DNA of 30,191 nucleotides, from the UHGV virus genome UHGV-0176705, one strand, 5' to 3'. This document shows, piece after piece, positions 177 through 3,645 of this stretch. Position 1 is the first letter of the stretch. Each line of letters opens with the position of its first letter. The stretch comes from a virus. The notes beneath the pieces are model-generated. The model was not told the DNA's origin, searched no databases, and saw only the letters and a program-made list of their open reading frames with translations. The position numbers and the translations under genes are program-made.

Positions 177-1895
177 ATGATTTTTAGGGATAGCTTGAGA
201 GTATTACCTTATGGTCGAGTAGATAATGATTTCTTCCAGATAGAAGAAAGACGTTCATGGAATGCAGGGCGATATTATTGGTCTAATAGAAGGATTTTTG
301 GTTATATTGGAATTACTCAATCCAGTAATAAAGAGCTGAAAGATAAGTCGGGGAGAGAGGGATTCATAAGAAACCAGGCTGCAAGAGAACTGAAAACTAT
401 TATATCTAATTTGTTAACTGAACTTGCTGATAGATTTTTTGGTTCACGTTCTGATGACCGTAAAGAGCTTTTAGAACAAGTTAAGCGTGAAAAAGAGTTA
501 AGAAAATCTGCTCAACAACAAGCTCGAAAATCAACACAAAAAAGTTTTTCAGAAGCTTTGAAGAATCAGACACCAGTTCTTGATGCTTCCTTGGAGGCTG
601 TTAAAAGGCTGAAAACTAAGCTTGATAAAACTGATGGTTCGTTAGATTTAAACTATCTTAAAATTATAGACAGTGATCTTACAAACTTAGATGCGTTGCG
701 CAGTGAAATTAAAACGCCTATCAAACCTCCAAAACTTGGAATGTATGAAGAGAAATATAGAGACTACAGAGATAAATTTAATGAGTTCTCTGCGTATATT
801 CTACAAATGAAGTTAGCAATTAATAAACTTGATTCTGAATTAAATAAACTTGAGCCTTCATTGTCAGCGAAAAATCACCTTGAAAAAAATCAAGGTATTA
901 TTAATTCTAAACTAACTAAGTTTAATAACACGATAGAGGAGAAGATACATTCTCTTTTAAAAAAATGGGCCGATGAAATAAAGGTTGATCGAAGTGATTA
1001 TTATGCTAAAACTATATCAGTTGTTGATTCAATAGATAATGATTCACAAATTGAAAATGTGTTTAATTTGCTCGATAGTTTATATGTTGAGTCAGTTGAT
1101 ACCCTAACTTTCAAATATCAATCAATAATAAAAGGTCTCGATAGATTATTTGAAGGTATAAACTTAGATTCAGCATTCTCATTATCTGAAGAAGAACGCT
1201 CATATTTTGAAGAAAAAGCTAAAAGTTTAAACGCGCTTGCACAGTTAGGTATTAGTGTTGAGATAATATCTCATGAACTTGAAGAAATGGATTCTATGGT
1301 AACCAGAGGACTAAACTCTCTTCCTACTTCTGTAAAAGAACACCCTGGTTTTTCATTGGCGTTAAATGCTCACAGATCGCTTACTCAACAAATACGTTTC
1401 TTATCACCTTTGAAAATATCAGGTTATCAATCCAGGCAGAGAATAACTGGAAAAAATATCATGGATTATGTCCTGAAGTTCTTTGGGGAGCGTTTCGAAC
1501 GGCAACGAATAACTATTGAATTTAGTGAAGAGTTTAAGCAAATCGCAATAACAGATATACCATCAAGGATCTATCCTGTTTTTACTAATATTATCAACAA
1601 TGCAATGTATTGGGTCAGTCTGTCAAATAATAGGCTCATAAAGATTGGTTTTGTGAATTCTTTGGTTATCATAGCAAATTCTGGTCCGGCAATTGATACC
1701 GATGATATCCCGCGACTATTTGAACTATTTTATAGCAAAAGAGCAAATGGACATGGGGTAGGTCTGTATCTATGTCGAGAAAACCTTGCTGTTGCACATC
1801 ATAAAATATGGTATTCAGAACCTGATGAAGGCGATAACTATTTAATAAAAGATGGCGCTAATTTTGTGATCCAGTTCAATGGAGTGGAGTTCTAA
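177..1895 (+). CDS. Cytoplasmic histidine-kinase-like protein (coiled-coil N-terminal half, HisKA-like H-box, C-terminal GHKL/HATPase_c ATP-binding domain)
   Basis: 572-aa ORF with ATG at 177 and an in-frame stop at 48-50 upstream. No hydrophobic TM segment. Motifs read from the translation: H-box-like ISHELEEM, N-box NIINNAMYW, G1 ANSGPAIDTDDIPRLFELF, G2 GHGVGLYLC, in the order expected for a kinase. Visibly AT-rich. Confidence 0.6.
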   Translation: MIFRDSLRVLPYGRVDNDFFQIEERRSWNAGRYYWSNRRIFGYIGITQSSNKELKDKSGREGFIRNQAARELKTIISNLLTELADRFFGSRSDDRKELLEQVKREKELRKSAQQQARKSTQKSFSEALKNQTPVLDASLEAVKRLKTKLDKTDGSLDLNYLKIIDSDLTNLDALRSEIKTPIKPPKLGMYEEKYRDYRDKFNEFSAYILQMKLAINKLDSELNKLEPSLSAKNHLEKNQGIINSKLTKFNNTIEEKIHSLLKKWADEIKVDRSDYYAKTISVVDSIDNDSQIENVFNLLDSLYVESVDTLTFKYQSIIKGLDRLFEGINLDSAFSLSEEERSYFEEKAKSLNALAQLGISVEIISHELEEMDSMVTRGLNSLPTSVKEHPGFSLALNAHRSLTQQIRFLSPLKISGYQSRQRITGKNIMDYVLKFFGERFERQRITIEFSEEFKQIAITDIPSRIYPVFTNIINNAMYWVSLSNNRLIKIGFVNSLVIIANSGPAIDTDDIPRLFELFYSKRANGHGVGLYLCRENLAVAHHKIWYSEPDEGDNYLIKDGANFVIQFNGVEF

Positions 1896-1896
1896 T

Positions 1897-3645
1897 ATGA
1901 CAGTGGCAAATTATAATTCTCTTGTCCAGAAAACTTTCTGCGAAAATGCAATTCGTTCCGTTGTCATGATTGATGACGATTTTCTGACGTATTCTGAATC
2001 AATCAGGGCGTTGAATAACGAAGTTGATTTAGACTACAACAAAATTGACTCATCTAAACGAGCCGCTACTCTTGAGAGCTTTTTTCAATCTAAAAATATG
2101 ATTTGTGATGTTGACAATGGTTCTGTTAATTTCGATGTGGATCGGATTAGAAAATCAGATCTTATTATTGTAGATTATCATCTTGATAATAATGCACCTG
2201 ATAAAACACTTAAACTATTACAAGATTTGAAAGACTCCGATCATTTAAATATGATTGTAATATATACTAGAGAGAATTTAGAAACGGTTTGGATGCAGAT
2301 ATCATCGACTCTCAAAGGTGCTCTGGATATCAACAGCTTGATCATTGACTACGATAATGAAGATGTCCAAAGTTATTGGGAAGACGTTGTATTACCGAAC
2401 TTAAATGATAATGGTAATAAAGCTCTCACAAGAGATGAAACAATAGCCTATATTAAAGACAGTAAGCCTTGTAGAAGAATTAAAAGATTAATACATGATG
2501 ATGCTGTGTTGGAGGATCAAAAGGATAAAAACTTCATTGCAAAAATGATTGCAGAATATGCTGTGTCTAGAAATGCAATTATTTCTAGCAACACATCTGG
2601 CAATGTCATTCGGGGTGATGAAAGCGGAGTAAAATGGATTCAATGTGGTAATATCTTTGTCTCCCTATTTCATAAGGTTCAAGATGATCATGAAAACGAT
2701 GGAGATAGGATTTGGCAAACTCTCAATGATTCTCTCATTGAATGGAAACCATCTTATTATCAGTTAATAAAATCTGAAATTCAGAATGCAATCGAAGCTG
2801 AGGCTTTATCTTTTGTAAATCATTTGGCTAACGATCATTACGGTCAAGCTGCGTGGTTAAATGAGATATTAAAATCAGACTCGCCTGATATTAGATGTAG
2901 AAATATTGACTTTGTATTTGGTAATTTATCAGAAGAGCTTTATCAAAGACTTAAAAATAATAATACGCTGGATGAATTTATCAAAAGTGTTTTTGATAGC
3001 TATTCAAATGAATACGCTAACAGCGGAGTTGCTGCATTGCTCCAATATTGCTCTTCAAAAATGGATCTGCCATCAAATAATGATACTTATCACGAAATGT
3101 ATCATGCTTTAAATATGAATTTGTCTTCAAAGAATTTTGAAGATGGTCATATTTCTACTGGCACTATTTTCTTTGATACAGAGTCGAACAAATGGTATTT
3201 ATGTGTATCTGCGGCATGTGATTTGGTTCCTACTCAGGGTAACGACCCTCACCATGTAAGATTAAGTCCGCACAGGCTCATTAAAGTTCTGGAGCTTTTT
3301 AACGCCAGTCAGAGTAAAGCATTGCCATTTGCTGAACATTCGAAATATATATATGTAATGCATAAAAATCAAAGAAAATATCTCTCTATTTTCGAAGGGG
3401 ATAAAACGCTTCCTGTTGTTGATTATATGGTGGTGTTGAATCATGGAACAACAGTTGATGGCGAAGAAAAAAATATTATTTCTGCCGTGTTTTTAAGTAA
3501 TATGGATGGCAACGTGCAAAATGTTCCTGTCCGACTCAAACTTAAATCTCAACTGAGAACTGGTTATGCAGAAAGATATCAGGCTATAGCGTCTCAGTAT
3601 AGCTCAAGGATTGGTGTGGATTATGTATCAATGATGCTACCATAA
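1897..3645 (+). CDS. Receiver (REC)-like domain protein with large C-terminal domain of unknown function (putative effector)
   Basis: ATG at 1897 lies 1 nt after the upstream TAA, preceded by GGAGTGGAG at 1881-1889 (the track start at 1879 is the alternative). The N-terminal ~130 aa show CheY-like landmarks VVMIDDDF, DLIIVDYHL and MIVIYT. The remaining ~450 aa have no motif I can assign. Confidence 0.55.
   Translation: MTVANYNSLVQKTFCENAIRSVVMIDDDFLTYSESIRALNNEVDLDYNKIDSSKRAATLESFFQSKNMICDVDNGSVNFDVDRIRKSDLIIVDYHLDNNAPDKTLKLLQDLKDSDHLNMIVIYTRENLETVWMQISSTLKGALDINSLIIDYDNEDVQSYWEDVVLPNLNDNGNKALTRDETIAYIKDSKPCRRIKRLIHDDAVLEDQKDKNFIAKMIAEYAVSRNAIISSNTSGNVIRGDESGVKWIQCGNIFVSLFHKVQDDHENDGDRIWQTLNDSLIEWKPSYYQLIKSEIQNAIEAEALSFVNHLANDHYGQAAWLNEILKSDSPDIRCRNIDFVFGNLSEELYQRLKNNNTLDEFIKSVFDSYSNEYANSGVAALLQYCSSKMDLPSNNDTYHEMYHALNMNLSSKNFEDGHISTGTIFFDTESNKWYLCVSAACDLVPTQGNDPHHVRLSPHRLIKVLELFNASQSKALPFAEHSKYIYVMHKNQRKYLSIFEGDKTLPVVDYMVVLNHGTTVDGEEKNIISAVFLSNMDGNVQNVPVRLKLKSQLRTGYAERYQAIASQYSSRIGVDYVSMMLP

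Follow-up and report, generated by a model that had tools for sequence, protein, structure and literature searches.

Bellieny-Rabelo, Pretorius and Moleleki (PMC8011034) defined in 2021 the Pfam families HEF_HK (PF19191) and Response_reg_2 (PF19192) on a gene pair encoding a histidine kinase and a receiver protein, and it is a copy of this pair, in the virus genome UHGV-0176705 (30,191 nucleotides; we refer to the whole analysed stretch as the window), that we describe here. Across 644 regions, their study reported 91.6% linkage of the two genes; it also noted that a C5 methylase often lies upstream, pointed out a relation to paraMORC ATPases, and proposed a regulatory role tied to restriction-modification. 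The kinase carries an N-terminal HATPase_c_3 head in 83% of the published members, a headless "group 2" architecture was found in 34 of 222 sequences, and the C-terminal ~320 residues of the receiver protein were left unanalysed. The paraMORC proteins are GHKL ATPases of restriction-modification systems and were described by Iyer, Abhiman and Aravind in 2008 (PMC2292703). A further system with which the pair can be compared is Detocs, described in a 2023 preprint by Rousset et al. (10.1101/2023.01.24.525353), which needs three genes, including the stand-alone buffer receiver DtcB. The Detocs kinase has a TPR sensor; in 80% of operons the effector is a PNP, with other, swappable effectors in the rest, and defence needs both the His and the Asp.

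In the window, gene 1 (positions 177-1895, 572 aa, TAA stop at 1893-1895) is annotated in RefSeq as "ATP-binding protein", and gene 2 (1897-3645, ATG at 1897, 582 aa) is an intact receiver-effector gene annotated as "response regulator receiver domain". Both genes, and all of their parts given below, are on the plus strand; they are separated by a single nucleotide, with GGAGTGGAG at 1881-1889 ahead of the gene 2 ATG. Both Pfam models match, and the kinase-then-receiver adjacency and the solubility are common to the family and the window copy. An earlier note on this DNA had presented the pair as a candidate undescribed two-gene defence system. The open reading frames (ORFs) and motifs that it listed are all where it placed them, and its kinase and receiver-effector logic is real, with the HEF_HK phospho-acceptor domain, the catalytic domain and the receiver residues present. 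Its novelty, its gene count and the integrity of the window copy did not hold: the pair is an already described family, since PF19191 and PF19192 were defined on the same gene pair. We conclude that window positions 56-3645 are probably the decayed right part of a three-gene mobile system on an ssrA island, whose intact form would run a methylation-gated phosphorelay to an effector.

The signs of decay are found at the left edge of the window. Positions 1-55 are the right end of an IS3 element on the plus strand, where the transposase codons run to about 25 and ...GGGTAGGATCA closes the terminal inverted repeat at 55. This stretch is identical to the IS3 junction in NZ_CP027368 (locus L001), in which the annotated IS3 transposase ends at window-equivalent position 25, and many E. 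coli chromosomes match the window at 100% identity with an annotated IS3 transposase ending at the same point. A three-way alignment places the junction at 55/56, with IS3 stopping at 55 and homology to an intact kinase gene starting from 56. The gene 1 frame extends upstream of the ATG at 177 and is open from 51, following a stop at 48-50. All of its 614 in-frame codons, 42 of them ahead of the ATG, align at 99% identity with residues 375-988 of 988-aa homologues found in Salmonella, Klebsiella and Serratia, which have the domains PF13589 (HATPase_c_3), PF19191 and PF02518. The open frame, the identity and the junction mapping identify 56-1895 as the 3' 62% (codons ~375-988) of a paraMORC-type histidine-kinase gene.

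On this alignment, gene 1 is a 5'-truncated fragment whose N-terminal ATPase domain is gone. The motifs that had been read from gene 1 stand, but its reading as a complete gene does not, the frame being open to the IS3 junction and covering 375-988 of 988 aa; and because the frame matches these residues, the supposed N-terminal coiled-coil half comes from the central part of a longer protein. Judged from the junctions, an IS3-associated deletion is what removed the methylase gene and kinase codons 1-374 in E. coli. Beyond IS3, the L001 chromosome continues with a ygaQ remnant and the gab operon, so that the left part of the island was deleted and not merely interrupted. For the window copy itself, which starts inside IS3, the loss of the methylase is deduced from the identical junctions elsewhere, and no C5 methylase was found downstream within the window island.

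The truncated allele is widespread. Positions 56-3700 are carried at an identity of at least 99.8% by 560 of 5,426 complete E. coli genomes, with all matches starting at the IS3 junction, and the upstream 2.3 kb of this allele, with the methylase and the kinase head, was found in none of the 5,426. The 572-aa "ATP-binding protein" that RefSeq lists in these 560 genomes is a gene fragment made by IS3. Because the 560 copies are near-identical, their spread is better explained by clonal inheritance than by selection. A promoter scan gave no site in the stretch from the IS3 junction to 177, and over the whole region it gave no more sites than in shuffled sequence. A comparison with the intact allele shows 4 synonymous and 5 non-synonymous changes in the kinase fragment, against 12 synonymous and 1 non-synonymous in the receiver gene, small numbers with a pattern that would fit relaxed constraint on the kinase fragment. 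The window copy is most likely an inert relic without function that has been passed on clonally and is present in about 10% of E. coli genomes. A 7.5-kb contig labelled as a Sporosarcina psychrophila metagenome-assembled genome (DYWT01000267.1) is also 100% identical to the E. coli remnant; it starts inside the kinase fragment and is almost certainly E. coli DNA that was mis-binned into a Firmicutes genome.

The intact form of the system is found on contigs with the 988-aa kinase, which carry an ssrA/smpB-linked island with integrases and a relaxase. Two of these loci (L002 and L003) have a triad of a C5 cytosine methylase (402 aa), the kinase (988 aa) and the receiver protein (582 aa), whose genes overlap or abut, with the methylase gene overlapping the kinase gene by 20 nt and the receiver gene following. 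Distant homologues at 24-32% identity show the same triad on an integrative conjugative element of Acidobacteria, as cargo of a Tn7-like transposon of Acinetobacter, and on a JGI metagenome contig beside a Bil-like E2/E1/JAB operon.

For a survey we took one genome per species and scored 40 loci, 34 of them with enough flank, with custom hidden Markov models of the kinase head, the kinase core, the methylase and the receiver. In each of the 34 informative loci the receiver gene is directly preceded by a full-length kinase gene, a complete adjacency of the homologous pairs that the earlier note had proposed to look for. The methylase gene is immediately upstream and co-directional in 26 loci, immediately downstream in five, about 3 kb away in one and not found in two. 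Based on this survey, the canonical system has three genes, not two, and by its gene content the canonical unit is a C5 methylase, a GHKL-headed kinase and a receiver-effector of ~580 aa, in which the Response_reg_2 receiver is joined to a family-specific module with a helical and a beta-barrel part. The window copy has the family's receiver with its DD, D, T and K residues and a HEF_HK-HATPase_c kinase upstream, but has lost the HATPase_c_3 head and the adjacent C5 methylase through IS3, unlike 34 of 34 and 31 of 34 loci, respectively.

Kinases annotated at 572 aa in other species do not support a natural short form. On the Salmonella Bareilly contig AAMSIC010000008.1 (locus L051, 3990-5265), such an annotation leaves a 1.25-kb "empty" gap after the methylase gene; we rejected this candidate, as the frame is open over 994 codons and shares 98% identity with the full-length form. 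The short call appears to be an error of annotation, perhaps carried over from the truncated protein that is so common in E. coli, and calls of this type may inflate, and partly explain, the headless class in the published survey. At the same locus, the intact system stands beside a ScoMcrA-like protein with SBD and HNH_2 domains (9775-10650), and on a metagenome contig (locus L009) another intact system stands beside a Bil-like E2/E1/JAB operon (13440-15991).

The ATPase and receiver domains that had been anticipated from motifs are found by Pfam as HEF_HK, HATPase_c and Response_reg_2. In the gene 1 frame, HEF_HK matches with E 1e-5 (26.2 bits against a cut-off of 24.1) and HATPase_c (PF02518) with E 2e-11. 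The HEF_HK dimerisation and phospho-acceptor (DHp) domain occupies 1242-1418, with the H-box His at 1272-1274, corresponding to H782 of the full-length protein, and the HATPase_c catalytic (CA) domain with its N, G1 and G2 boxes occupies 1560-1835. The motifs are ISHELEEM (1266-1289), NIINNAMYW (1587-1613), ANSGPAI... (1674-1730) and GHGVGLYLC (1749-1775). Over 39 diverse kinases, the His-Glu pair H782/E783 is invariant, the CA boxes are conserved, and the position four residues after the His is A, E or S, never T or N. A 2026 HisKA preprint describes PF19191 as having no conserved T/N, which it ties to phosphatase activity, and the missing T/N at this position would fit a one-way trigger. The CA domain family profile matches the CA domain of ThkA (PDB ID 3a0t, E 9e-12).

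The intact kinase is a soluble protein of about 990 aa, composed of a MORC/MutL-like GHKL head, a conserved middle region that is possibly transducer-like, a long coiled coil, the HEF_HK DHp domain and the HATPase_c CA domain. The head that is lost from the window copy has the invariant GHKL motifs E32..N36, D61xGxG (DxGxGM) and GxKGIGR in the intact homologues. Residues 13-138 of the intact kinase match the N-terminus of the BbrUII/HgiDII restriction enzymes (E 1.5e-13), and the head shows weak matches to Hsp90, PMS2 and MutL.

In the gene 2 protein, Response_reg_2 matches residues 19-175 (25-181 of the 588-aa ORF starting from 1879) above the cut-off with E 3.7e-31. The receiver domain spans residues ~20-260 (1954-2676) by the secondary structure of the AlphaFold2 model and has a helical insert of ~80 residues (145-226). 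Its motifs are VVMIDDDF (1960-1983), DLIIVDYHL (2158-2184) and MIVIYT (2251-2268), and its key residues are the phospho-acceptor D93 (2173-2175), D26, D27, T124 and K260. In 125 diverse members with a mutual identity of at most 60%, D88, D93 and T124 are present in 100%, D26 in 98%, K260 in 90% and D27 in 86%.

The remaining ~400 residues have no Pfam match, and NCBIfam gives none for the receiver protein, confirming that the output domain is unrecognised. The AlphaFold2 models are of high confidence, with a pLDDT (predicted local distance difference test) score of 84.8 for the full-length protein and 85.5 for residues 262-582. Foldseek searches against the PDB with both the full and the C-terminal models yielded no match at E <= 0.001, and a sequence-profile search of the PDB with the receiver family returned no hits. 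From the models and the conservation, the effector part can be divided into an all-helical part (residues 268-410, 2698-3126) with a W-x-P-S...SEIQN..E motif and a beta-rich domain (residues 411-567, 3127-3597) with C441 at 3217-3219. G422 and C441 are invariant in the 125 members, and N406, R571, G573 and D575 are present in at least 94%, a conservation that resembles that of an enzyme. This C-terminal module never occurs apart from the Response_reg_2 receiver; the 344 clusters at 50% identity have essentially one architecture, and a test for exchange of the effector module between architectures was negative. A Pfam scan of 43 members found Response_reg_2 alone, with PemK/CcdB, helix-turn-helix (HTH) and winged-helix families absent, and the effector searches showed no nuclease fold or family (PD-(D/E)xK, HNH, GIY-YIG or other). 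The best fold match of the modelled beta-rich domain is to MazF, Kid and CcdB, toxins acting on RNA or gyrase, at 4-11% identity; neither Foldseek nor the Pfam scan supports this match, and an hhalign comparison with an alignment of MazF, Kid, EndoA and ChpBK gave a probability of 0.1. The possible MazF/CcdB likeness of the modelled domain is a fold-level hint and not an assignment.

These observations suggest how the intact unit could work. The methylase would mark host (self) DNA, and the GHKL/MORC-like head would be driven by ATP, on which it dimerises, to sense DNA that is foreign or lacks methylation. This dimerisation would be passed via the coiled coil to the DHp/CA core and trigger autophosphorylation of H782, from which the phosphoryl group would move to D93 of the receiver, and the phosphorylated receiver would then release or dimerise the effector. 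The architecture and the residues are established, and the other steps we infer. The effector is most likely a growth-arresting toxin, with a site-specific nuclease as the main alternative; the toxin is favoured because a diffusible effector keeps no positional information and because the sole fold match is to toxins. Taken together, the methylase, the GHKL-headed kinase and the receiver-effector might form an uncharacterised immune or addiction module, with a MORC-like methylation reader, a one-way His-to-Asp transfer and a toxin of MazF/CcdB fold with a catalytic Cys, an interpretation that we put forward tentatively. On this model, the joint loss of the methylase and the sensor head would be a safe way out, matching the IS3 deletion.

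Family members are found at a Tn7 cargo position and on an integrative conjugative element; others have a Bil-like E2/E1/JAB operon or a ScoMcrA-like HNH gene as their neighbour. PADLOC v2 models gave no credible match for the kinase, the receiver, or the full-length or distant homologues, and the methylase alone matches the Type II, DruM and DrmMII methylase models. For the intact family a role in defence is plausible; for the window copy it is unlikely.

Several points weigh against reading the locus as the remnant of a methylation-gated phosphorelay. The searchable literature yielded no experimental study of the PF19191/PF19192 family, and the sensing of DNA by the GHKL head and the gating by methylation are suggested by context only. 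The putative loss of the methylase rests on the junctions of other genomes, the DNA left of position 1 lying outside the window. The receiver-effector ORF is still intact, with its 12 synonymous and 1 non-synonymous differences, and may retain a residual function.

Among the alternatives, the one that survives best is a restriction enzyme divided between the two proteins of the intact system, in which the C-terminal region of the receiver protein would be a novel endonuclease that, when phosphorylated, cuts target DNA lacking methylation and so degrades the invader instead of arresting the cell. The almost constant linkage to a C5 methylase, the resemblance of the head to the ATPase head of BbrUII/HgiDII and the usual company of paraMORC ATPases with restriction-modification nucleases all point in this direction. 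None of the nuclease families and folds named above was detected, however, a diffusible phosphorylated effector would forfeit positional information, and the best fold match is to toxins acting on RNA or gyrase, so that we regard a split restriction enzyme as rather unlikely. Less probable still is the interpretation given in PMC8011034, by which the intact pair is a two-component system controlling linked restriction-modification genes, with a DNA-binding or regulatory C-terminal region that does not kill. It agrees with the tight methylase linkage and with one Acinetobacter locus, where an HTH C-protein-like gene lies beside the methylase gene, but a DNA-binding domain is undetectable in the receiver protein and most operons have no separate nuclease to regulate.

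That the window genes are themselves a working two-gene defence module, in which the 572-aa kinase from ATG 177 activates the receiver-effector on infection, is very improbable: both ORFs are intact and annotated as coding sequences in RefSeq, every phosphotransfer motif is present, a headless group exists among the published sequences (34/222) and the remnant is kept in 560 genomes, but the N-terminus was created by IS3 and not by an evolved shortening, no promoter-like site precedes 177 from the junction on, the kinase is full-length in 34/34 informative loci of other species, at least one 572-aa annotation (Salmonella L051) wrongly shortens a frame that is open over 994 codons, the near-identical copies fit clonal inheritance rather than selection, and the non-synonymous to synonymous counts are 5 to 4 in the kinase fragment against 1 to 12 in the receiver gene.

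The surroundings of the remnant agree with an AT-rich integrase island, as had been described: the G+C content is 0.33-0.35 over window positions 1-4000 and 0.42-0.55 in the rest of the window, and a P4/CP4-57-type tyrosine integrase gene (4172-5443, minus strand; NCBIfam PRK09692, E 5e-132) lies 527 bp from gene 2. The same integrase gene adjoins ssrA/smpB in loci L001 and L002, identifying it as the integrase of the ssrA island. Between gene 2 and the next, convergent ORF is a terminator-like hairpin (3657-3687, plus strand) with a 12-bp stem and a T run. This ORF (3717-4133, minus strand) encodes a hydrophobic hypothetical protein of 138 aa with no family match in Pfam or NCBIfam; it adjoins the pair only in the enterobacterial ssrA islands L002 and L051, is missing from the Acidobacteria, Acinetobacter and JGI loci, and belongs to the island cargo, outside the kinase-receiver system. 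An alignment with L001 and L002 shows a 24-nt copy of the 3' end of ssrA, the gene of the transfer-messenger RNA (tmRNA), with a 3-nt deletion at 5567-5590 (minus strand). The full ssrA is present after the corresponding 24-nt site in both loci, and a tmRNA scan of the window detected no full tmRNA gene. Positions 5567-5590 are a boundary of the attachment (att) type, in a tandem array at ssrA of the island remnant followed by a second integrated element.

A second kinase-like pair (5715-6996) is found just beyond this boundary, at the start of the second element. A 317-aa protein has a weak match to HATPase_c_2 of the anti-sigma-kinase type (24.7 bits against a cut-off of 27.4, E 2.6e-5), and an overlapping gene encodes a 144-aa STAS-like DUF4325 protein (E 9e-14). 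The pair has no PADLOC or NCBIfam match. Flanked by the att site on one side and the prophage integrase on the other, it occupies a position typical of cargo or defence genes, and it is followed by a 189-aa ORF with no matches (7010-7579). From 7566 to 30191 the window is a lambdoid prophage, with its integrase gene at 7566-8774 (minus strand), an SPFH/Band-7 protein at 9756-10583, a CI-like S24 repressor at 12828-13520, a Rha-like regulator, a porin gene at 20253-21350 (minus strand), a tRNA-Arg(tct) at 23419-23495 and a gpA-type large terminase at 26932-29034.

The family survey sharpens the published description to a testable three-gene unit with a fixed effector. A methylation-gated phosphorelay in defence, if true, would link MORC-type ATPases, restriction-modification logic and two-component signalling, with implications for bacterial immunity and for DNA sensing by MORC ATPases. 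If the unit is an immune or addiction module with a toxin effector, phage defence would have drawn on two-component signalling a second time, independently of Detocs, and the E. coli remnant would represent a naturally "disarmed" allele with an intact effector gene that could be re-armed.

Among the known systems, two candidates, MADS and WonAB, were set aside as unrelated, since MADS merely adjoins a histidine kinase and WonAB is an OLD-ABC ATPase with a nuclease. The family differs from a classical transcriptional two-component system in that no DNA-binding output domain was found among HTH and winged-helix families or by fold. The MazF, Kid and CcdB toxins differ from the effector domain, which is larger, is preceded by a helical bundle of ~140 residues and has its own invariant Cys.

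Detocs has in common with the family a soluble histidine kinase that signals to a receiver fused to a non-DNA-binding effector, and the predicted phospho-His and phospho-Asp residues are present and invariant in the HEF_HK/Response_reg_2 family. The earlier suggestion that the locus may be a Detocs-like variant is nevertheless not supported. Neither the window nor the intact loci have a DtcB-like ORF, the third gene being a DNA methylase; the intact homologues carry the GHKL HATPase_c_3 head and no TPR sensor; and the effector is fixed and family-specific, not a PNP or otherwise swappable, with only Response_reg_2 in 43 members and no PADLOC match.

The likeness to the paraMORC and BbrUII/HgiDII proteins (NF050001) lies in the MORC/MutL-like GHKL head and its linkage to DNA methylases on mobile DNA. 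Only positions 8-128 of the 659 in the BbrUII/HgiDII model match, with 50 bits against a cut-off of 550, and in the kinase the nuclease part is replaced by the coiled coil, the DHp and the CA domains, with the output moved to a separate receiver protein.

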